Source: Clostridiaceae bacterium (GTDB lineage Bacteria > Bacillota > Clostridia > Acetivibrionales > DUMB01). Taken from it: a DNA stretch of 57,971 nt. The notes beneath the pieces are model-generated. The model searched no databases. It was not told the DNA's origin and saw nothing but the letters and a program-made list of their open reading frames with translations. The DNA lies in the NCBI GenBank assembly GCA_012840535.1, contig DULF01000023.1, forward strand, positions 1 to 57,971, in the 5' to 3' direction. A program made the translations under genes and the position numbers. Positions 8,420 to 56,165 of this stretch are shown here, one piece after another (the first letter of the stretch is position 1; each line of letters opens with the position of its first letter).

Positions 8420-10432
8420 CTACGAAGCGGGTGTATTTAAACTGTCCATATATTTAATTATAGCATATTTTAATTTCTCCTTGGCATCCTCCAAAGAATT
8501 TTCCATAAGCTGTGCTCCTGCAACTGTCATATGTCCTCCCCCGCCAAGTTCTTCCAGTATTACCTGCACGTTTATTTCACCTAATGACCTTCCGCTTATA
8601 TAAACTTCATTGTTCACGGAACACAGCACAAATGCCGCTGTAATGCCTGACAGGTTAAGCAGCTCGTCTGCAGCTTTGGCTGCAATTAATTGCGCGTTTT
8701 TCACGTTTGGAGGACATATTGAAATTGCAATGTTATTGTTCAGAAGTTCCGCATCCCTTACGACATTTGATATATTCAGGTAAGTTGTAAAATCATTCTG
8801 GAACAACTGCTTTACTGAAACAGTGTTAACCCCTTGTTTCCTGAGATACGACGCAGCATCAAAAGTCCTTACTCCTGTCTTGAAAGTAAAGTTTTTCGTA
8901 TCCACCACTATGCCCGCATATAAAGCTTCAGCCTCCAAAGGCCTGAGCTTCAGTTTTTCATCTACATACTGGAGAATTTCCGTTACCAGTTCGCAGGTGG
9001 AAGACGCATATGTCTCATGGTATACAAGGACTGCGTCCTGTATAAATTCCACCCCTTTTCTATGGTGGTCAATAACAACAACCTGCTTGGTGCGCTCAAG
9101 TAGTTCAGGAGCCTCAGTAAAGCTGGGTTTGAATGTGTCAACAACAATCAGCAGGGTATTTTGCTTTATCCTTTCCATGGCCTCATATTTTGTCATGAAC
9201 AAACCTTCATACTCGCCGCTTCTCTCAATTTTAGAGATCAAATTGCTTATCATGGGGTTATTTGAACGGCTTAATACAATGCGGACATCCTTCCCCCTGT
9301 CTTTTACCATGCGGTAAAGGCCCAAAGCGGCCCCGAGGGAATCGTTGTCAGCATTTTCATGCCCCATTATAATCACATCAGGCGATTGGTCAACCAATTC
9401 TCTCAAAGCATATGCAATAACCCTGGCTTTTACCCTGGTTCTTCTCTCCAGTTCCCTTGTTTTCCCGCCGAAGAAACTAAAGCTGTCGCCGTTCTTGATA
9501 ACAACCTGGTCCCCTCCTCTTCCTAAGGCAATATCAATTGAAGCGCTTGCATAGTTAAGGTTTTCAACGAGGGAACCACCGTTTATCCCCAATCCTATAC
9601 TAAGGGTTACAGGTATTTTATTACCTACGTTGATCTCCTTTACAGCATCAAGTATTTCAAACTTTTTATCTTCCATTTCCTTAAGGTACTTATATTCAAA
9701 AATAATAAGATACTTATCCCTTTCATACTTTTTAACAATTCCTTCCGTAAAATTAAACCATTGCACAAGTTTCCTTTCTATTTCAGCCAGAATTTGAGGA
9801 CGTGCTGCATCCTCCATACTCTGCATCAGCTCATCATAATTGTCAATAATTATGATACCAGCCGCCACTTTTTCATCATGGTACCTTGCTTTAAGCTCTA
9901 CAAGCTCGGTATTTTCTATAAAATATAAAAGCAAGATAAAATTTTCGGTATCGGCTTTTCCCTCTATTTGTACAAAATTGCCCAAAACATTATAATGCTT
10001 GTCATTTACGCAAACCTGCCTGGAAATCCTTGTGGTTTCATTTACCAAATCATTTGGATCAAGTCCTTCCACCAAAGAATTAATTGCCCTTTCCAACAGG
10101 TTTTCGTCGTCAAATATTTTTCGGAATAAAGAATTATACCAGATTATCGAGCCATCCAGTTCCACTACAACAAGAGGCATCGGAAAGTTTAACAGCGTAT
10201 CCTTTGTAGCAGTATCAATATTCAAAGTCAGATTCTCAATATATCTGGTAAGTTCCTTTTGCTTTTTATAATTCGACCTGAAATTGTAGTATGTAAGAAA
10301 CAATAACAGCGCTATGCCTGGAATGGCAACCCTCCAATCCAGTACGGCAATTACGCCTACCAGCATCAGAATGATCCATAAGTAAAAACCTGCTCTGGGT
10401 AATAGTTTTCCGGAAAATCTCTTACTATCCAT
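8420..10432 (-). CDS. gdpP: GdpP/YybT-type cyclic-di-AMP phosphodiesterase (TM, PAS-like, degenerate GGDEF, DHH/DHHA1)
   Basis: Two N-terminal TM helices, DHH motif VVVIDHHRK, DHHA1 motif LGGGGHMTVAGAQ, and position immediately upstream of rplI-dnaB as in Bacillus. The ATG at 10432 has a GAGGAGAAG SD. Confidence 0.85.
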   Translation of the reverse strand: MDSKRFSGKLLPRAGFYLWIILMLVGVIAVLDWRVAIPGIALLLFLTYYNFRSNYKKQKELTRYIENLTLNIDTATKDTLLNFPMPLVVVELDGSIIWYNSLFRKIFDDENLLERAINSLVEGLDPNDLVNETTRISRQVCVNDKHYNVLGNFVQIEGKADTENFILLLYFIENTELVELKARYHDEKVAAGIIIIDNYDELMQSMEDAARPQILAEIERKLVQWFNFTEGIVKKYERDKYLIIFEYKYLKEMEDKKFEILDAVKEINVGNKIPVTLSIGLGINGGSLVENLNYASASIDIALGRGGDQVVIKNGDSFSFFGGKTRELERRTRVKARVIAYALRELVDQSPDVIIMGHENADNDSLGAALGLYRMVKDRGKDVRIVLSRSNNPMISNLISKIERSGEYEGLFMTKYEAMERIKQNTLLIVVDTFKPSFTEAPELLERTKQVVVIDHHRKGVEFIQDAVLVYHETYASSTCELVTEILQYVDEKLKLRPLEAEALYAGIVVDTKNFTFKTGVRTFDAASYLRKQGVNTVSVKQLFQNDFTTYLNISNVVRDAELLNNNIAISICPPNVKNAQLIAAKAADELLNLSGITAAFVLCSVNNEVYISGRSLGEINVQVILEELGGGGHMTVAGAQLMENSLEDAKEKLKYAIIKYMDSLNTPAS

Positions 10433-10447
10433 TGCACTTCTCCTCAA

Positions 10448-10792
10448 TTAAGATTCCATCTTTTTTAGCCTGGAAAGGTTTAAATGCCTGGACAACTCAG
10501 ATAAATCGCCATAGTGTTTTTCAATGTCATGATTTTCAATAAGCCCTAGTTTTATCTTGTTTTCTATCTTAATTTCAATTGCGTTATAACTGATACCAAG
10601 ACGCTTCCCCAGCAAATAGCTGATTAATATAATATTAGACAAAATCTCAGAAACCGATTCATGAACTTCTTCCTTTATCCCGTTTACAAGGACTTTGAAT
10701 AAATTGGCGACGTCTGTTATCAACTCGCTTTTCAGCCATTCAATGATTTTTATATTCCTCGTAATATCAATTTCTCTATCGAAAAAAGGCAT
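10448..10792 (-). CDS. Small all-helical hypothetical protein (MazG-like family, tentative)
   Basis: 114-aa ORF abutting the gdpP start. Family assignment is from memory of similar clostridial annotations only. Confidence 0.45.
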   Translation of the reverse strand: MPFFDREIDITRNIKIIEWLKSELITDVANLFKVLVNGIKEEVHESVSEILSNIILISYLLGKRLGISYNAIEIKIENKIKLGLIENHDIEKHYGDLSELSRHLNLSRLKKMES

Positions 10793-10886
10793 ATGACCAC
10801 TCCATTGTGTTTACGGCTTTTCAATAATTTGATTATACCACTAAAAAGCACATCTTTGTACGATTTCCCATAAAAACCAACCTTTG

Positions 10887-11729
10887 TCATTCAACTTTCC
10901 ACTTTGGGTAAGAACCCAGGAACTTATAAAAAGAGGTTTTCCTCCTTACCATGGCAAGGGCGTCCCGAACGTCTTCATCATCCCTGTGGCCTTCTATATC
11001 AACAAAAAATATATACCTGCCCAGCTGGTTTTTTTCCGGCCTGGACTCTATCCTTGTCATATTAATATCCCATAAATTGAATATGTCAAGTATCCTGTAC
11101 AAGCTGCCCGGTCTGTCTTCAGTTGAAAAGACAATAGAGGTCTTGTCCGAACCGGTCCTCGGAGAATCCTTCTTTGAAATGACCACAAACCTGGTGAGGT
11201 TGTTGTCTTTATCCTGGATTGAAGAAGCCAGGACGTCCAGTTTATATTCTTCAGCAGCCGCTATTGAACCAATCGCCCCATGATCATTATTTATGCGGGC
11301 GGCAACCTCCTGTGCTGCTTCTGCCGTGCTGTAAACAAACCTTATTTCAGCACGGGAAAGGCTTGAATTAATAAATTTTCTGCATTGGCCGACAGCTTGA
11401 GGGTGGGATAAAATGCATTTAATATCCTCCAACCTCGTCCCTTTTCTTACAAGCAAATTCTGCCTTATTTGTATAGTTAATTCCGCTTTTATCATCAAAT
11501 CGACTTCAAAAGCCATCATATCAAGCGTTACTCCGACACCGCCCTCAATGGAGTTTTCAATTGGAACGACCGCCTCGTCCAAATCTCCGCTCATGACAGC
11601 ATAAAGCATTTCCGGTATTGTATTATAAGCAACAATTTTATACGTATTACGTTCTTTATTACAGCCTATGTATTTGTTCAAGGCCTCCTGTGAAAACGTA
11701 CCCCTCGGACCTAAAAAACCGATCCTCAC
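10887..11729 (-). CDS. pheA: Prephenate dehydratase with C-terminal ACT domain
   Basis: RIGFLGPRGTFSQEAL...VVPIENSIEGGV...ILSHPQAVGQC...DKTSIVFSTEDRPGSLYRILDIF..NMTRIESRP. GTG at 11729 follows a GAGGTGG SD. The track ORF extends upstream through the repeat element and is probably too long. Confidence 0.9.
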   Translation of the reverse strand: MRIGFLGPRGTFSQEALNKYIGCNKERNTYKIVAYNTIPEMLYAVMSGDLDEAVVPIENSIEGGVGVTLDMMAFEVDLMIKAELTIQIRQNLLVRKGTRLEDIKCILSHPQAVGQCRKFINSSLSRAEIRFVYSTAEAAQEVAARINNDHGAIGSIAAAEEYKLDVLASSIQDKDNNLTRFVVISKKDSPRTGSDKTSIVFSTEDRPGSLYRILDIFNLWDINMTRIESRPEKNQLGRYIFFVDIEGHRDDEDVRDALAMVRRKTSFYKFLGSYPKWKVE

Positions 11730-11764
11730 TAAAGCCACCTCAATCCTGCAATATTTAAAAAGGT

Positions 11765-11855
11765 GAGACACGGGGACGGTTCTGTAGACACGGGGACGGT
11801 TCTTGCGGCTCACTCGAAGAATGAGCCACAAGAACCGTCCCCGTGTCCGTGTCTC
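11765..11855 (-). repeat. Compound hairpin element with three copies of GACACGGGGACGGTTCT (two in one orientation, one inverted) around a nested hairpin
   Basis: Copies at 11765-11783 and 11786-11804, and inverted at 11830-11847. Nested stem GGCTCA/TGAGCC lies between them. On the transcribed (minus) strand the last copy is followed by ACCTTTTT. Confidence 0.75.
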
Positions 11856-11866
11856 TATAATATAGT

Positions 11867-12154
11867 TTAATCTGCAGTATATGGCAAAAGTGCAATATGT
11901 CTTGCACGTTTAATAGCTACTGTCATCTGCCTCTGGTGCTTAGCACAATTACCAGATATTCTTCTGGGCAGAATCTTGCCTCTCTCGGATATGAACTTTC
12001 TAAGCCTTGCAACATCTTTATAATCTATTTCAGCAATTTTATCAACACAAAATGAGCAAACCTTTTTCCTGGTTCTTCTCATCTTTATGCCGCCTTTTAC
12101 TTCGCCTTTGTCATATGCGTCCTTGTTAGCCTTATCTTTCTTTTGCCCTGACAT
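11867..12154 (-). CDS. rpsR: 30S ribosomal protein S18
   Basis: [69 protein letters not shown] lies 8 nt before the ATG at 12154. Confidence 0.95.
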
Positions 12155-12239
12155 GCAAAAACCTCCTTCCCTGCAAAATTCCGTTTACTTTCTTTCCCTC
12201 ATATACATACGTCTGAATCTTTTGCTGCAACGGCAATTA

Positions 12240-12656
12240 TCAGAACGGCAATTCGTCATCCTCATCTATAGGATAGAATCCCTCAGCCTGGTCTGCATCT
12301 GTATCCTGAGGCTCCCTGAACTGGGCGTCGTCGCTTCTCTTGCTGTCAGCAAAATATGCTTCTTCAGCTATGACCTCAGTAACATAATGCCTTTTACCTT
12401 CATTATCGTCCCACGTCCTGGTCTGGATTCTCCCTATTATAGCCACCTGACGTCCTTTTAAAAAGTATTTTGCGCAGAATTCCGCCAGCTTGCTCCACGC
12501 AACTATCGGAATAAAATCTGTTTGTCGTTCCTCTCCCTGTCTTGCAAATCTCCTGTCTACAGCGAGGGTAAAGCTGCATACAGGTATGTTGTTGACATTT
12601 GTATACCTTAACTCAGGGTCTCTTGTAAGTCTTCCCATTAGAACGACTTTATTCAT
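12240..12656 (-). CDS. ssb: Single-stranded DNA-binding protein
   Basis: MNKVVLMGRLTRDPELRYT OB-fold start and acidic tail DEDDELPF. Confidence 0.95.
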   Translation of the reverse strand: MNKVVLMGRLTRDPELRYTNVNNIPVCSFTLAVDRRFARQGEERQTDFIPIVAWSKLAEFCAKYFLKGRQVAIIGRIQTRTWDDNEGKRHYVTEVIAEEAYFADSKRSDDAQFREPQDTDADQAEGFYPIDEDDELPF

Positions 12657-12665
12657 AAAATCACC

Positions 12666-12953
12666 CTACTTTTTCTTCTTTATAATAATGTGCTTCATTA
12701 TTCCGTCTGTGATCTTGAAGTTTCTGTCAAGCTCATAGGGAAAATCAGGACCGGCGCTGAAGTTAACCAGAACATAGTAACCTTCGTTCTTGAAGTTAAT
12801 AGGATAGGCAAGCCGCCTTTTACCCCATTCATCAATACTCTCCAACTGAGCTGATGTTTCAATCAAATTTTTAAATTTTTCTACAAGAGCTTTAATATCT
12901 CCCTCTTCAAGGTCAGGATTGATAATAAAAAGCGTTTCATACTTTCTCATCAT
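12666..12953 (-). CDS. rpsF: 30S ribosomal protein S6
   Basis: MRKYETLFIINPDLEE...WGKRRLAYPI, first gene of the rpsF-ssb-rpsR unit. Confidence 0.95.
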   Translation of the reverse strand: MMRKYETLFIINPDLEEGDIKALVEKFKNLIETSAQLESIDEWGKRRLAYPINFKNEGYYVLVNFSAGPDFPYELDRNFKITDGIMKHIIIKKKK

Positions 12954-12982
12954 CTGCTTTCACCTCCTCCCGGACTAAACGG

Positions 12983-13003
12983 CCCTGTAACGCGAGTACA
13001 GGG
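12983..13003 (-). promoter_or_regulatory. Hairpin in the rpsF 5' UTR (candidate S6:S18-binding leader)
   Basis: CCCTGTA-ACGCGAG-TACAGGG stem-loop about 25 nt upstream of the GGAGGAGG SD. An rpsF leader motif is known in Firmicutes, but I cannot verify the consensus from memory. Confidence 0.3.
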
Positions 13004-13552
13004 CAAGGATTGTAAACAAAGTTTATTTTATCATACGGTTTTAAATAATACAAGGGGTTTTTGCACACTGGGCGGCGTCAATTTGCTCCCGGTTTTTAAA
13101 AAGCAGTTCCACCCTTTGTTTTTGTTAACTCATATAATATAGCAACTATCCCTTATACTTTTTTTACATGCTTTGTTTCTACATGTCCACCGCTGCAACA
13201 ATATGCCCTAAGTTCCGCCATAGCTTTAAGGCCATATCTGCTCCGGCCTGATGGCCTGCTTTCAAGCTTACTCGACAATACATGGCTTACATGTCCCTCT
13301 GTACTTTTGAACAGAACCAGCAAATTCTGATTGTTACATTTTGCCTTTATTATTTTTAATTATATTATTTTAATTAATTGTTTGTAACAAATTAAGAAAA
13401 CTTTCCGGTTGTAGAAAAATCTTACGCCGATGAGTTATAATAACAGTAAAGAATACCTGGCAAAACAGGTAAAACTGCCATGTTTCTTTGCAAATTAAAC
13501 CGGAATATATTATATAAAATAACATTATATATCGCAGAGGAGGCGTCGCAAA

Positions 13553-14808: not shown

Positions 14809-17055
14809 ATGAATACAACCGCGGACATAAATGATGTATATATGGTAATCAACGGGGAACACAGGGATCCATTTTCCGTGCTTGGCATGCATGTCATCAG
14901 TAAATCCGGTGCCAAGAATCTATGCATTGCAGTCAGGGCTTATCTTCCTAACGCTGAACGAATTAATGTAATAAATTTGCAGGATAACAGCAGTTATACA
15001 ATGGAGAAAATTCACGAAAGCGGGTTTTTTGAAACAGTTATAAGCGGCGTTAATGACCTGTTTCCGTACAAGCTTGAGATAACCGACAACTGCCGGAATG
15101 TTTTTACAATATATGACCCCTACAGTTTCTGGCCTGTATTGTCCGAATACGACCTTTACCTTTTTAATGAGGGAAACCATCATAGGATATTTGAAAAGCT
15201 TGGAGCTCACGTTCTTAACATTAACGGAATCGAAGGTACTTTGTTTGCGGTATGGGCTCCCTGTGCAAAACGGGTGAGCGTGGTAGGCGAATTCAACCAA
15301 TGGGACGGCAGAAGACACCAGATGAGGATGCGGGGAAGCTCAGGAGTCTGGGAGATATTCATACCCGGAGTTAAACACGGGGATATGTACAAGTATGAGA
15401 TAAAAACTCCCTGCAACGAATTATATATTAAATCCGATCCTTACGCCCTTTACTCGGAACTGAGGCCTGGAACCGCCTCTATTGTATACAATTTGGACGG
15501 CTACAAGTGGAATGACAGGGCATGGATTGAAAAGAGGGACAGTTCCAGTATATTTGAAAAGCCCATATCAATTTATGAAGTTCATTTGGGTTCGTGGAAA
15601 CGTGTACCTGAGGAAGGAAACAGGTTTCTCACTTACAGGGAACTTGCAGAGGAACTGGTCAGCTATGTTAAGTATATGGGGTATACCCATATTGAACTTT
15701 TGCCGGTTGCAGAACATCCCTTTGACGGTTCGTGGGGTTACCAGGTTACCGGATACTATTCAGTAACAAGCCGCTATGGCACTCCTGAGGATTTTATGTA
15801 CTTTGTTGACAGGTGCCACCAGGAAGGCATAGGTGTGATAATCGACTGGGTACCTGCACATTTCCCAAAGGATGGGCACGGACTTGCAAGGTTTGATGGA
15901 ACTGCCATTTATGAACATTATAACAGCAGGCAGGGCGAGCATCCGGACTGGGGAACCCATATTTTTAACTACGGAAGAAATGAAGTTATGAATTTTCTTA
16001 TATCAAATGCCGTCTTCTGGTTTGAAAAGTATCATATTGACGGCCTGCGCGTTGATGCGGTGGCATCAATGATTTATCTGGACTACGGAAAGAAAGAGGG
16101 CGAATGGATACCAAACAAATGGGGCGGAAAAGAAAATTTGGAGGCCATAGAATTCTTGCGCCGTTTGAACGCAACAGTTTTCAGGTACTTTCCTGGAGTT
16201 ATGATGATTGCCGAAGAGTCAACTTCCTGGCCGCTTGTATCCAAACCGCCCCACGTGGGAGGATTGGGTTTTTCATTTAAATGGAATATGGGCTGGATGA
16301 ATGATTATATCAGGTATATAAGCATGGACCCCATATACAGAAAGTATCATCATAATAATCTGACGTTCTCAATAATGTACGCTTTCTCTGAAAACTTCAT
16401 TCTTGTACTGTCCCATGATGAAGTTGTCCACGGCAAGTGCTCAATGATAAACAAAATGCCTGGAGACTATTGGCAAAAATTCGCAGGTCTTAGGGTAAGT
16501 TACGGTTATATGTACGGCCATCCCGGGAAAAAACTACTCTTCATGGGTGGAGAATTTGGTCAGTTTATGGAATGGTATTATAAACAAAGCCTTGACTGGC
16601 ACCTTCTTGATTTTGAAATGCACAGGAAGCTGCAAAATTATGTAAGGGACTTAAATACCCTTTATAAAAACGAAAAAGCGCTTCATGAAATTGATTTCAG
16701 CTATGAAGGTTTTGAGTGGATTGACTGCAGCGATGCCGACCACAGTATTGTATCCTTCATACGTAAGGGCAGAAACCACCACGATGTGTTGTTATTTGTG
16801 TGCAACTTTACGCCTGTTGCCCATGAGAATTACCGTATCGGTGTTCCGTATAATGTCTTCTATAAAGAAATACTTAACAGCGATTCTGAAATTTACGGCG
16901 GCAGCAATATAGGAAATTTTGGAGTGATACACGCCGAAGAGTATCCATTCCACAACAGGCCTTATTCAGTAAACCTAAGAATTCCGCCTCTTAGCGTGAT
17001 GATTTTTAAGCCTGAAATGAAAAACAGCAGACAATCTTGTGATTATCTGCCGTGA
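14809..17055 (+). CDS. glgB: 1,4-alpha-glucan branching enzyme
   Basis: [13 protein letters not shown] start, then GH13 motifs [39 protein letters not shown]. The ATG at 14809 is preferred; the track ORF starts at an upstream in-frame TTG. Confidence 0.93.
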
Positions 17056-19185: not shown

Positions 19186-19356
19186 TTGAATCTTCGTTAG
19201 GTGAGGTTACTGTACAGATACACGCTGCTGCCCTGCAACATCGAAAGATGCCAAAGGGTCAACAGGTATTACCGAAATAAGGTTCTACTTAATGTAGCTG
19301 GAACTAGGTATTCCAAAGCTGTACAGTGCCAAAGCTCAACGAGTGAAGGTGAAGAG
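19186..19356 (+). promoter_or_regulatory. M-box (ykoK leader) Mg2+ riboswitch
   Basis: CTTCGTTAGGTGAGGTTACTGTACAGATACACGCTGCTGCCC...GGGTCAACAGG...ATAAGG...TAATGTAGCTGGA...ACAGTGCCAAAGCTCAACGAGTGAAGG closely parallels the B. subtilis mgtE leader as I remember it. A Mg2+ channel gene lies downstream. Confidence 0.9.
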
Positions 19357-32636: not shown

Positions 32637-32779
32637 GCCTGAAAAGCCTGTCAAAATTTATAACTGCATCAATTATAAAACGCACATGTGCAATGCCTGA
32701 TGCAAGCGATAAATTTTACGGAACTACGCACCTCATACTCTGTGAAGCTATAGTTCATCTCCATCCGAAATGGATGGAA

Positions 32780-32948
32780 CCGATGCCGGCAGGTTTTCCG
32801 GCTCAGACATCATCGCGTACCTTTCACCTTCCCAGGCATTATGCCCAGTGGCATACAAAAGGCGCTACGTCATCACGGCGGCAGGACCGCTCAGGATTTT
32901 AACCTGATTCCCTTTTACCGTGCAATGCCATTGCACGCACCAGCATCT
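32780..32948 (-). promoter_or_regulatory. Cobalamin (B12) riboswitch
   Basis: Minus strand GGTAAAAGGGAATCAGGTTAAAATCCTGAGCGGTCCTGCCGCCGTGA...GCCACTGGGCATAATGCCTGGGAAGG, with the B12-box GCCACTG at 32843-32852. Upstream of cobTUSC. Confidence 0.87.
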
Positions 32949-33038
32949 TGATATTCAGTTTTTTTAATTATACTATTAATAAGTTTTAAAATTTTGTATT
33001 TTTTTAATAATTATTGTATATTTTTTGTATCCTGCTTT

Positions 33039-50910: not shown

Positions 50911-50998
50911 GGAGTGTCCCCTTTTGTATTGCAGCCTGTCTGTGACGGAACTTAGCTGCTGGAGTCTGCTTTATCTCATGCCTTTTTGGGGACACTAC
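50911..50998. repeat. Inverted repeat AGTGTCCCC / GGGGACACT separated by about 66 nt, 3' of deoC
   Basis: Arms at 50913-50921 and 50888-50896 (complement). The spacer contains GACGGAAC, reminiscent of the GGGGACGGTTC motif. Confidence 0.45.
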
Positions 50999-51012: not shown

Positions 51013-51161
51013 AAATAGAAAAGAAAGGAGTGAGCAAAAGAGGAAACAATATAGTATAGAGACCAGAAAACAGAAGTGAAAAAACTGATCAATAAAGGAT
51101 TTCGAAGAAAAGCCCGGCTTTTAACTCTTCTGTTCTCTGTTCCCTGTTCTCTGTTCTCTGG
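51013..51161. repeat. Heptad-arm element: purine-rich arm, centre with TTCGAAG, then four in-phase CTGTTCY heptamers
   Basis: CTGTTCT CTGTTCC CTGTTCT CTGTTCT at 51130-51157. The degenerate purine arm at 51013-51085 includes AGAAAAG, AGACCAG and AAAACAG. Confidence 0.65.
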
Positions 51162-51183
51162 TATGGAGTTTCCCCTTACCGCT

Positions 51184-54007: not shown

Positions 54008-54301
54008 TTACTTGAACATCCTGCTGAAAAATCCCATGCCTTTGGATCTGGAACTCTCTCTGTCACTGTATTCGCAACTTATAATGTCTCCCTCAACAAT
54101 TAATTCCGAGCTATCCAGGTTAAGTTTGTTAATATGTAAGTCCTCGCCCCTGATAATTAATACACCCAGTTCAGTGTCTACTATAATGCTTTCATCGTTG
54201 AAACTCTCAACGTCAATTACACCTGAAACACTCATTTTCTCTCTATTTTCAATAATGATGTTCTGTACCTTCGGCTTTGAAATCTTCTTTTCCTCCACCA
54301 T
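54008..54301 (-). CDS. yabP: Sporulation protein YabP
   Basis: IIENREKMSVSGVIDVESFNDESIIVDTELGVLIIRGEDLHINKLNLDSSELIVEGDI. Confidence 0.85.
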   Translation of the reverse strand: MVEEKKISKPKVQNIIIENREKMSVSGVIDVESFNDESIIVDTELGVLIIRGEDLHINKLNLDSSELIVEGDIISCEYSDRESSRSKGMGFFSRMFK

Positions 54302-54436
54302 CCTGCTACCCCCTGATATCCAGATTAAATCATATTAACTGCCAAGCTAGTTTAATGCATACCTATGCCCTGTACATATGCCACACTAAATAATATGCAT
54401 GTACAAACAAAAAAATAACCTATTGTTCTATATTGC

Positions 54437-54476
54437 CTACTGTAATAGGCTTGATAAATCAAGCCCATTACGGTAG
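54437..54476. repeat. 19-bp imperfect hairpin CTACTGTAATAGGCTTGAT / ATCAAGCCCATTACGGTAG
   Basis: Read directly: two non-Watson-Crick positions and a 2-nt centre. Confidence 0.6.
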
Positions 54477-54477
54477 C

Positions 54478-54650
54478 AGGTTAGGGGTTAGAGGTTATAG
54501 GTTAAAATAGGAGATATCTGTGGTCTCCAGATAAATTATTTATTCAGATAAAATGATGTACGGGCGACCAAAGGTCGCCCGTACATTTACCTCTCATCTC
54601 TTACCTCATACCTCTTTTCTCTTACCTCTTACCCTTTTCCTCTTACCTGA
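54478..54650. repeat. Heptad-arm element with central GC-rich perfect hairpin
   Basis: Left arm AGGTTAG GGGTTAG AGGTTAT AGGTTAA (54478-54505). Centre has the 14-bp stem ATGTACGGGCGACC-AAA-GGTCGCCCGTACAT (54556-54586). Right arm has nine in-phase TACCTCT-type heptamers (54588-54650), the last containing the yabO stop codon. Confidence 0.75.
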
Positions 54651-54882
54651 TCCTGTACATCTCTTTTGCTTCAGCTTTTGATACATGTTCGGTAACAGAA
54701 ATGACCTCAACACGGGTAATTGCATTGCCAAACTGTATTTCAATAATATCGCCAGGTTTTACATCCGAACCCGGCTTTGCAACCTTACCGTTAATTTTTA
54801 CCCGGCCCTGATCGCATGCTTCATTTGCCAGTGTGCGCCTTTTAATGAGTCTTGAAACCTTAAGAAATTTATCAATACGCAT
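54643..54882 (-). CDS. S4-domain RNA-binding protein (YabO/Hsp15-like)
   Basis: MRIDKFLKVSRLIKRRTLANEACDQGRVKINGKVAKPGSDVKPGD. AGGGGG SD before ATG 54882. Confidence 0.85.
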   Translation of the reverse strand: MRIDKFLKVSRLIKRRTLANEACDQGRVKINGKVAKPGSDVKPGDIIEIQFGNAITRVEVISVTEHVSKAEAKEMYRIR

Positions 54883-54903
54883 GATTAGACCCCCTGATGC
54901 CAA

Positions 54904-55036
54904 AGAATAGAGAATAGAGAAAAGAGAACAGAAAACAGAGAACAGAGAATAGTTTCTACAAGAACCATAGACATGGCATTGCTTCGAAGCCTTGTATTAA
55001 TCTGTTCTCCCACTTCTGTTCCCTGTTCCCTGTAAC
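54904..55036. repeat. Heptad-arm element filling the hup-yabO intergenic space
   Basis: Seven in-phase purine heptamers AGAATAG AGAATAG AGAAAAG AGAACAG AAAACAG AGAACAG AGAATAG (54904-54952). Centre has GCTTCGAAGC and ACAAGAACC. Pyrimidine arm CTGTTCT CCCACTT CTGTTCC CTGTTCC CTGTAAC (55002-55036). Confidence 0.75.
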
Positions 55037-55312
55037 CTACTTGTTTACTGATTCCTTCAGAGCTTTTCCTACTCTGAAAATAGGTATCTTTGATGCTTTA
55101 ATAGTTATTTCCTCTTTAGTCTGGGGATTTCTTCCCTTCCTCTCAGCTCTTTGACGTACTTCAAAAGAACCAAATCCTACCAGCTGGACTTTTTCACCTC
55201 TTGCCAACGCTTCCTCAATACTGCTAAGTACAGCGTTGAGAGCTTGCTCTGCATCCTTCTTTGACAAATTGCTCTTTTGGGCAATACTTGCAACTAGATC
55301 TGCCTTATTCAT
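55037..55312 (-). CDS. hup: HU-family DNA-binding protein
   Basis: [65 protein letters not shown]. Confidence 0.95.
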
Positions 55313-55358: not shown

Positions 55359-56165
55359 TTAATTATTTCCATTTACGTCGGAAATATGTATTTTTGCCTT
55401 GTTCCACAGCTCATCCATTTCAGAAAGCTTCATATCTTCCAGTTTCTTCCCCATCTTTGCGCTTTCCCGCTCTATATATTCAAACCTTTTAATAAATTTG
55501 TTAATTGTTCCGGTCAGAGCAAGTTCCGGCTGCACTTTGAGAAACCTAGAAAGATTGACAAGTGCAAAAAATACATCTCCTATTTCATCTGTTATTCTTT
55601 CCACATTTTTACTTTTGTATACATCCTTTAGTTCCTGAAATTCCTCATGTACCTTCGCAATAACATCTTCAATATTATCCCAGTCAAAGCCAACCTGGGC
55701 TGCCTTCTGTTGCACTTTATAACTTCTCATCAATGCAGGAAGGTTCGCCGGTATGTCTTTTAGTACTTCTGTCTGGGTTTTTGCACCTTTCTCCTTCTTT
55801 TTTATTGCTTCCCAGTTGTCAACTACCTGATCAGGAGTGTCAGCCTTGTCCTTCCCAAAAACATGCGTATGTCTTAAAATCATTTTCCTGCAAATACCTG
55901 AAATTACATCATTAATATCAAACATATCGTTCTCTGCAGCAATCTGCGCATGAAAAACAATTTGAAGAAGTAAGTCTCCAAGTTCTTCACATAGCTTGTC
56001 CTTGTCATTCATATCAATTGCTTCAAGTACTTCGTATGTTTCCTCTATAAGATACTTCTTTAAGCTCTCGTGAGTCTGTTCCCTGTCCCACGGACATCCT
56101 TCCTTGCTTCTTAAAAGCTTCATAATTTCAACCAATTCAGAAAACTCATATCTATCCTTCATCAT
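55359..56165 (-). CDS. mazG: Nucleoside triphosphate pyrophosphohydrolase MazG (tandem MazG domains)
   Basis: CPWDREQTHESLKKYLIEETYEVLEAI...EELGDLLLQIVFHAQ and a second EE..E..D repeat. Confidence 0.9.
   Translation of the reverse strand: MMKDRYEFSELVEIMKLLRSKEGCPWDREQTHESLKKYLIEETYEVLEAIDMNDKDKLCEELGDLLLQIVFHAQIAAENDMFDINDVISGICRKMILRHTHVFGKDKADTPDQVVDNWEAIKKKEKGAKTQTEVLKDIPANLPALMRSYKVQQKAAQVGFDWDNIEDVIAKVHEEFQELKDVYKSKNVERITDEIGDVFFALVNLSRFLKVQPELALTGTINKFIKRFEYIERESAKMGKKLEDMKLSEMDELWNKAKIHISDVNGNN

Follow-up and report, generated by a model that had tools for sequence, protein, structure and literature searches.

Complementary heptanucleotide arrays flank a GC-rich hairpin between yabO and yabP in a Clostridiaceae bacterium and may have expanded in situ at a terminator

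We analysed a 57,971-nt stretch of DNA from a Clostridiaceae bacterium (contig DULF01000023.1 of assembly GCA_012840535.1, hereafter the window), in which the 341-nt spacer between yabO (rqcP) and yabP carries two arrays of heptanucleotide repeats, one on each side of a GC-rich hairpin. We refer to this element as E1, to a second element in the hup-yabO spacer as E2 and to an array just upstream of pdp as E3. With moderate confidence, we read E1 as a fast-evolving 3'-untranslated region (3'-UTR) and terminator region of yabO, in which heptads would have expanded in situ by slippage around a conserved GC hairpin (T1) and the complementarity of the two arms would have been inherited from a terminator stem. 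We class E1 as a variant of the known heptanucleotide simple-sequence repeats (SSRs), here plausibly nucleated on terminator hairpins, and not as a new mobile element. We observed the anatomy of the element, the conservation of its hairpin, a home-grown downstream arm, length polymorphism between strains, absence from slightly more distant relatives and recurrence of the architecture at other loci.

One comparison concerns the sequence next to a conserved TGTACATGCATA box upstream of yabP. Of the 11 lineages checked, 10 have this box in front of the gene (the relative L257 with one substitution), and it may act as a promoter or operator. Just upstream of the box, the relatives L088 and L260 carry the terminator GTAACCCTAAT-TTATAT-ATTAGAGGTTA followed by T7, and the relative L082 carries ATAACCTCTAAT-ATGGAAC-ATTAGGTTA followed by T6. 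In the window, the old 3' half of this ancestral terminator (T2), AATAGGTTA with its T7, still adjoins the box, the old 5' half is found as the four tandem units AACCTAT, AACCTCT, AACCCCT and AACCTGC, and a second hairpin (hairpin 2) occupies the place of the former loop. Read from this alignment, the downstream arm arose in situ, by tandem amplification of the 5' arm of the stem in the ancestral yabO terminator, and it was not imported, because the more distant relatives retain the ancestral terminator intact.

An earlier note, made from the letters of the window, had described four features between the two genes (a 19-bp imperfect hairpin, two heptad arrays and a perfect 14-bp stem), and all four were recovered (Table 1). 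The yabO stop codon TAA (complement of 54643-54645) lies within the first heptad, in gene sense, of the upstream array, as had been claimed for this last TACCTCT-type unit. The upstream array fills the 63 nt from the stop codon to T1 and was detected by Tandem Repeats Finder (TRF) as a TTACCTC array of period 7 with 8.9 copies and 70 % matches. T1 (stem arms ATGTACGGGCGACC and GGTCGCCCGTACAT) is followed by an A/U-rich inner spacer that includes a small hairpin, GGAGA-N9-UCUCC (54510-54528), kept in the relative L085 and not in L082. The downstream array was detected as an AGGTTAG array of period 7 with 3.9 copies and 85 % matches, 82 nt away from the upstream one. Behind it, hairpin 2 has 19-nt arms that are 89 % complementary; it is present in L085 and absent in L082 and L088. 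A search against Rfam 15 gave no gathering-level match at 54250-55100, with permissive matches of 15-23 bits against thresholds of 43-114, and the location between yabO and yabP is not that of an rRNA intervening sequence or a four-helix-bundle gene (PF05635), settings that the earlier note had named for similar palindromes. A small protein encoded in the element was considered and rejected, the open reading frames (ORFs) there being repeat-derived frames of 42-45 aa only. We also noticed the palindrome TGTAC(A) four times within 300 nt (54394-54405, 54366-54378, 54556-54562 and 54652-54660), some of them at the feet of the GC hairpin and at the end of yabO, and the palindrome could belong to a promoter or operator element.

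The best match to YabO in the species-representative collection was 86 % identical and came from anaerobic-digester metagenome-assembled genomes (MAGs), the named relatives being Acetivibrio-like. The window sequence is present in digester, biogas and wastewater metagenomes, and its exact YabP sequence was found only on one 525-nt metagenome contig. The structure is carried by three lineages at about 91 % or higher YabO identity, namely a strain in the metagenomic run X3, L085/L087 and L082-84. The X3 strain (about 94 % DNA identity) has the element with exactly one heptad less, by a 7-nt deletion at 54496. In L085/L087 the parts stand in the same order with about three upstream units and one downstream unit fewer, and the alignment of L085 with the window opens gaps of 7 nt in the downstream arm and of 20 nt and 3 nt in the upstream arm. 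Copy number thus varies between strains by whole units, both in X3 and in L085. The L082-84 lineage keeps the stop-proximal GGTAAGAGG, continues with a long degenerate AGAGGTT-type array and then the GC hairpin, and has neither the downstream array nor hairpin 2; shuffled sequence folds as well as this spacer does (z -0.7). At 82-86 % YabO identity, relatives have no arrays (L002, L003, L088-90, L255, L257, L258, L260 and L263), and their spacers of 63-290 nt hold an ordinary hairpin with a T-run. The presence/absence polymorphism that the earlier note had asked about is real, as is a polymorphism of copy number, and the E1 structure is, judged from these alignments, recent. The relative L263 (GCA_049325575.1, 85 % identity) also carries an insert of about 2.9 kb between yabO and yabP (10241-13136) with two ORFs that have no Pfam match.

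T1 is common to the three closest lineages (that of the window, L085/L087 and L082-84) and shows a double compensatory change, in which A-U in the window and L085 corresponds to G-C in L082 (GCGACC/GGUCGC to GCGGC/GCCGC), although with three lineages only this compensatory support is thin. In the relatives the stem is directly followed by UUUACCAUUUU or UUUGUC, with UUU immediately after T1 in both L085 and L082. A terminator consensus scan flagged T1 in the window with 14 pairs, 9 of them G-C, and the tail CATTTTATCT, and its position 63 nt after the yabO stop is likewise that of an intrinsic terminator. From these features, T1 is most likely the yabO terminator. Of the roles that the earlier note had offered, that of a terminator module would suit the GC hairpin, given the U-rich sequence after it, its conservation and the terminator scan.

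The history that we propose begins with a short ancestral spacer, which would have ended in an AT-rich terminator, AACCyCUAAU-loop-AUUAGrGGUU with a U-run, directly upstream of the TGTACATGCATA box. The second, GC-rich hairpin T1 would then have arisen after the yabO stop in the lineage of this genome, and heptad repeats would next have expanded on both of its sides, purine-rich ones between the stop codon and T1 and pyrimidine-rich ones from the old 5' stem arm. The arrays would lengthen and shorten in 7-nt steps by replication slippage, as the pattern of repeats suggests, and the partial complementarity of the arms would stem from seeding by the two sides of a stem, possibly reinforced by template switching within a strand at quasi-palindromes. 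Plausible nucleation points are stable hairpins at which the polymerase stalls, and nucleation on them would explain why the same layout arose independently, with unrelated units, at other terminators. T1 would act as the yabO terminator and as a protector of the 3' end, and the arrays would be mostly neutral by-products that at most lengthen the helix or modulate read-through.

All high-scoring arrays in the window have period 7, and a stringent scan over periods 5-11 returned period-7 arrays only, with none in 50 block shuffles; a laxer scan added weak period-5 and period-6 arrays. The arrays hold at least three head-to-tail 7-nt units beyond chance, as expected of heptanucleotide SSRs, and three intergenic period-7 loci lie in the 58-kb window as against two in 1.26 Mb of relatives' loci. 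The units of the two arms are complementary at 6 of 7 positions, as the earlier note had stated for E1, and equally so in E2. Complementarity at this level has a chance of 0.011 with random heptads and about 0.10 with composition-matched units; E1 and E2 are both convergent pairs of complementary arrays.

The further claim of the note, that the whole unit of roughly 170 nt can fold into one long imperfect helix, holds for the sequence relation of the arms and not for strong pairing between them. The full-region RNA fold of E1 in gene sense reached -87.5 kcal/mol (z -8.5), and the single-helix claim is too strong because the two local hairpins account for most of this signal. Compared with shuffled arms, the arm-arm duplex had a z of -1.6, and 32 of 500 shuffles did as well; shuffling the arms in place cost only 4-5 kcal/mol (z -1.8 with 13 of 300 shuffles as good, and z -1.0 with 52 of 300). 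Comparison with shuffled arms, which the note had named as a test that could refute it, came out borderline and went partly against the note. The predicted helix is interrupted at every heptad. The arms of E1 are related in sequence, yet their long helix is weak in this copy by the folding model. The predicted ensemble joins the upstream array to downstream units over about 22 expected base pairs and leaves the old 3' arm of T2 unpaired, its partner heptad being taken up by the upstream array.

The same architecture recurs elsewhere with other sequences. E2, whose AGAGAAC-type arms lie 48 nt apart, has a core (CAAGGCTTCGAAGC) that resembles the hup terminators of relatives, a fold z of -4.6 and an arm duplex z of -4.5, with 0 of 500 shuffles as good. 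E3 has a weak purine-rich partner at about 51040-51078 (fold z +0.6; arm duplex z -2.1). In the 1.26 Mb of relatives' loci, the stringent scan yielded only two period-7 arrays, both with this layout. One is in L066 (Thermohalobacter berrensis), where a stop codon is followed by five copies of CAATTTA, the GC hairpin GAACGCGAAC-TGG-GTTCGCGTTC and complementary units (fold z -5.2), and the other is in L049 (a Bacillota MAG), where four copies of GTTAGAA and three of NTCTAAC surround a core of about 60 nt (fold z -4.5). The L066 element, at about 16040-16150 (CTT3, NZ_MCIB01000003) and directly after the stop of a 797-aa ORF, is the cleanest heptad-arm and GC-hairpin element that we saw in a cultured organism and would be a good experimental model. 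The layout was also found in the IMG/VR contigs L102, L103, L107, L110 and L123 (contig GC 27-65 %). An automatic detector of inverted period-7 pairs recovered E2 and L049 and missed E1 and L066; its counts are lower bounds because degenerate arrays such as these two escape it.

We then counted three-unit seeds in IMG/VR, yielding 12 stretches for GAGGTAA and 22 for GAGAACA. A complementary array lies just downstream in 4-5 of 18 distinct GAGAACA arrays and 1 of 9 GAGGTAA arrays, compared with 2 of 40 control arrays (both dubious), all of these being small numbers. A special heptad unit was rejected because composition-matched control heptads are about equally frequent (7-13 stretches against 12-22). 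Units and cores differ at every locus with this architecture (AGAGGTA, AGAGAAC, CAATTTA, GTTAGAA). The inverted heptad-arm architecture that the earlier note described therefore does recur, in E2, L066, L049 and several IMG/VR contigs, but the sequence family of which it took E1 to be the archetype was not borne out. Separately, the IMG/VR contigs L106, L114 and L122 carry GAGAACA arrays of 5-9 units in an apparent conserved coding region common to all three, where, if read in frame, they would give a 21-nt (7-residue) repeat.

Several points weigh against our reading of E1. In the window, the stem of T1 is lengthened by AUGUAC/GUACAU, and T1 is a weak canonical terminator there because its U-tract begins 3 nt past the stem and is interrupted (CAUCAUUUUAUCU). 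Of five metatranscriptome runs found, four were compared with the region, and their contigs leave the element uncovered, so that termination at T1 is read from the sequence; slippage and template switching are likewise deduced from the pattern and were not observed, and 58 kb is the portion of this genome examined. Further, the L082 and window lineages have T1 in common but differ in the sequence on both of its sides, which would also fit a small inserted hairpin. The 10-bp stem ACGGGCGACC-NNN-GGTCGCCCGT occurs in 98 metagenome stretches of all GC contents, and in the JAEEG* contigs of one metagenome project it is clearly multi-copy, standing after stop codons, by A-rich heptads (AAGAATA/AAGAATT) and also near GTAGGGGCGACC..CCCCTAC hairpins. 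These last points would suit a non-autonomous element related to repetitive extragenic palindromes (REPs) or MITEs (miniature transposable elements with inverted repeats), that is, a GC hairpin with GTAC/GTAC feet, with or without heptad flanks, inserted by a trans-acting transposase; the heptad arms would be terminal inverted repeats or repeats that such an element tends to seed. Also in keeping with it, relatives at 82-86 % YabO identity lack the block altogether, and the clade carries real small mobile repeats, since 50 nt of the window (50932-50981) match, at 94 % identity, part of a palindromic insertion of about 230 nt at a non-orthologous locus, the hup-yabO spacer of L082 (290-520), which is sequence evidence of a genuinely dispersed small repeat. 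The hup-yabO spacer, moreover, swaps repeat types between strains: E2 is replaced by other repeats in L082, L085 and a strain in the run X2, the place of the window's AGAGAAC element being taken in L085 (95-345) and L082 (170-290 and 545-640) by 2-4 tandem hairpin units of about 62 nt, GGGGACAC...GGAGTGTC.

We nevertheless consider a mobile origin unlikely. The downstream arm is, by the comparison above, an amplified resident stem arm and therefore no terminal repeat of a mobile element; some relatives lack the element, but the arm runs on into the resident terminator, and neither a flanking direct duplication nor another target-site duplication was seen around the block. Dispersed conserved copies, as expected of a MITE, are lacking, in that the window holds no second copy and the other loci with this architecture share no sequence or termini with E1. 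A REP or REPIN (a REP doublet forming a hairpin) would be expected in many copies, and T1 occurs once in 58 kb, lies with hairpin 2 at single-copy depth in the metagenomes that hold this genome, and has the foot GTAC, not GTAG. None of the 98 metagenome stretches lies between yabO and yabP. The majority are plain terminators with A- and U-tracts or come after tRNA-like 3' ends, and clustering of the ORFs near these hairpins gave no neighbouring protein family in common. The recurrence of the stem alone says little, because about 100 matches are near a rough chance estimate for one 10-nt arm among many hairpins. Period-7 arrays are 25 times denser near the hairpins of the 98 stretches than away from them, a value on which we did not rely, as 5 of the 8 arrays come from one project and an intergenic/coding confound brings it to about 3-fold. 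On these grounds the suggestion of the earlier note that such elements are non-autonomous and mobile is not supported, and a REP-like origin of T1 stays a minority view because the JAEEG* hairpin is multi-copy. The arrays themselves, unlike T1 and hairpin 2, attract unitigs of 30-37 nt at 20-35 times the local depth.

A different proposal, which we likewise doubt, makes the RNA structure the selected feature: the arm helix capped by T1 would be a substrate of RNase III or a barrier to 3' exonucleases and would uncouple the stability of the yabO mRNA (of the hup mRNA in E2) from that of the downstream sporulation genes. All of the elements stand between co-directional genes directly after a stop codon; E2, L066 and L049 are predicted to form helices of about 20 bp or more of nearly continuous double-stranded RNA, far stronger than in shuffled controls (z -4.5 to -5.2), and E1 itself predicts some pairing of both arrays (about 22 expected base pairs). 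An RNase III-targeted structure has been linked to a heptanucleotide SSR in Haemophilus influenzae (PMC12721329). On the other hand, the E1 arms pair only marginally better than shuffles, arm pairing is not conserved, because the L082 lineage has arrays without a partner arm and no fold signal (z -0.7), and if T1 terminates, the downstream arm would rarely be transcribed together with the upstream one. Very improbable, in our judgement, is the idea that a protein or the ribosome binds to the heptads, with GAGG units mimicking the Shine-Dalgarno sequence and CCUC units its complement. The arrays do abut stop or start codons, the pyrimidine-rich arrays of E3 and E2 end just before the ribosome-binding sites of pdp and yabO, each upstream unit holds a GAGG, and a binding-site role has a precedent in a proposal for the TAACTGA repeats of Beggiatoaceae (PMC4679880). 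Against this, the units differ between loci, control heptads are equally common, unit sequence drifts within arrays (70 % matches), and no candidate binding protein was identified.

E1 shares much with known repeats. Xanthomonas genomes carry 70-75 pairs per genome of convergent intergenic GGGAATC arrays, which keep their pair type but differ in length between species and whose stem-loop potential has been noted (Rehm et al. 2015, PMC4692102). E1 likewise consists of two nearby convergent intergenic heptamer arrays of varying length. The Xanthomonas pairs use one G-rich unit genome-wide, read as G-quadruplex-forming, whereas the units here are locus-specific and have no G3 tracts, and here, unlike there, the arms flank a GC-rich terminator-type hairpin and one arm is traceable to a terminator stem. 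Among long SSRs, heptamers are the class that is over-represented, with polymerase slippage as the proposed cause (Mrazek 2007, as cited in PMC4679880 and PMC4692102). E1 resembles these and the short tandemly repeated repetitive (STRR) sequences of cyanobacteria in its head-to-tail 7-nt units, mostly intergenic position, sporadic distribution and length variation by slippage; STRRs and other long SSRs are, in most accounts, single direct arrays of a few genome-wide units and are not described as complementary pairs around a hairpin. The TAACTGA repeats of Beggiatoaceae, a single unit with 169 direct sets and one indirect (MacGregor 2015, PMC4679880), are similarly short intergenic heptamer arrays by start codons, and E3 upstream of pdp is similar to them.

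With intrinsic and tandem terminators (PMC8355165), E1 shares a GC stem-loop after the stop codon, a U-rich tail and a second hairpin with a U-run downstream; canonical terminators are without tandem-repeat flanks of 30-60 nt, and the U-tract of T1 is weak in the window. With REPs and REPINs, mobilised by REP-associated tyrosine transposases (RAYTs; PMC3116915), it shares a short GC-rich extragenic palindrome with GTAs/sTAC-like feet, but the copies of REPs, nearly identical and often arranged as doublets, number tens to hundreds and go with a RAYT gene, as against one copy per 58 kb here. In the hmw1A and hmw2A genes of H. influenzae, the number of a 7-nt repeat tunes expression, with RNA structure and RNase III involved (PMC8262952 and PMC12721329). 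That repeat is a single direct array in the promoter and 5'-UTR with a demonstrated phenotype, while the arrays here are in a 3'-UTR or terminator and known from sequence. In the literature searched we found such pairs described nowhere for Clostridia, and neither units that are specific to a locus nor an arm that goes back to a terminator stem. The novelty that the earlier note had supposed for inverted heptad arms stands in so far as no clostridial description was found, and does not extend to a new kind of element, given the Xanthomonas pairs.

Table 1. Coordinates, in the window, of the parts of E1, of E2 and E3, and of the neighbouring genes.
Feature	Coordinates	Strand	Basis
mazG	55359-56165	-	Pfam
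hup	55037-55312	-	Pfam
E2, AGAGAAC-type arms (54904-54952, 55001-55035) around a core, hup-yabO spacer	54904-55035	-	TRF, inverted-repeat scan
yabO/rqcP, S4-domain protein	54643-54882	-	Pfam S4 (E=2e-14); ORF and sequence
Upstream array of about 9 purine-rich heptads, GGUAAGA/AGAGGUA type in RNA sense	54587-54648	-	TRF
T1, perfect 14-bp GC-rich hairpin, 3-nt loop, probable intrinsic yabO terminator	54556-54586	-	inverted-repeat and terminator scans
A/U-rich inner spacer	54505-54555	-	sequence, fold
Pyrimidine-rich downstream heptad array, RNA sense AACCUAU AACCUCU AACCCCU AACCUGC	54478-54504	-	TRF
Hairpin 2, 19-bp imperfect, inside the former loop of the ancestral terminator	54437-54476	-	inverted-repeat scan
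T2 remnant, 3' stem arm AAUAGGUUA and U7 of the ancestral terminator	54409-54424	-	lineages aligned on the box
Conserved TGTACATGCATA box upstream of yabP, downstream edge of the variable region	54394-54405	-	lineage alignment
yabP	54008-54301	-	Pfam
E3, TCTGTTC array, 4.6 copies, just upstream of pdp	51126-51165	+	TRF

The genes mazG, hup, yabO, yabP, yabQ and divIC are all on the minus strand, and their identities were confirmed with Pfam in a scan of ten proteins of the window. Other features of the window were recorded alongside. The deoC-pdp spacer (50911-50998) holds a MITE-like unit of 88 nt with the inverted motif GGAGTGTCCCC / GGGGACACT at its two ends; its inner 50 nt are the dispersed segment mentioned above. 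Between rpsR and pheA (11766-11850, minus strand) lies a GC-rich 29-bp hairpin that is 93 % complementary and contains a perfect 20-nt tandem, AGACACGGGGACGGTTCTGT twice; its RNA fold has a z of -10, a T-run follows on the minus strand, and it is probably an oversized rpsR terminator. M-box, cobalamin and S-adenosylmethionine (SAM) riboswitches were found with gathering-level scores at 19186-19354, 32771-32959 and 2449-2557, respectively, and the window has four tRNA genes. In the runs X1, X6, X9 and X15, near-perfect TACCTCT/AGAGAAC unitigs of 31-58 nt (matching 54598-54648 and 54911-54949) reach depths of 40-75 against 2-6 for the surrounding genome; short-read contigs break at the arrays, and the same units are abundant elsewhere in these communities or in this genome. 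The JAEEG* contigs, from an organism of about 50 % GC, carry a composite multi-copy intergenic element (L157; L166/L184/L187; L190/L207/L237; L197; L226), composed of the hairpin ACGGrCGACC-NNN-GGTCGCCCsT in up to three tandem copies, A-rich heptads and GC-rich blocks, the last with GTAGGGGCGACC..CCCGTAG hairpins and GATTTCAT-plus-mini-hairpin units.

If in-situ expansion is the right explanation, E1 would be a traceable case of a long structured intergenic spacer that arose de novo, by amplification of a stem arm in 7-nt steps, and of complementary arrays building up around a hairpin. It would join three subjects that are mostly handled apart (the excess of heptamer SSRs in bacteria, quasi-palindrome mutagenesis and the evolution of terminators), and paired heptamer repeats would reach from Xanthomonas to Clostridia and to contigs of the IMG/VR viral collection. 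In practice, such arrays break short-read assemblies and may be misread as mobile elements or as genes for non-coding RNAs. A bolder generalisation, which we rate as improbable and a shade more so than the mobile or selected-structure proposals, is that inverted heptamer arrays on terminator hairpins form a widespread unnamed class of self-extending terminators, in which repeat number tunes read-through. It is suggested because the predicted ensemble pairs the arrays and leaves the old 3' arm free: the upstream (AGAGGUA)n would act as an antiterminator by sequestering an AACCUnU unit of the 5' arm of T2, and gain or loss of units would heritably and reversibly set read-through from yabO to yabP-yabQ-divIC, which are sporulation and division genes. 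The finding would carry greater weight if repeat number tuned termination.

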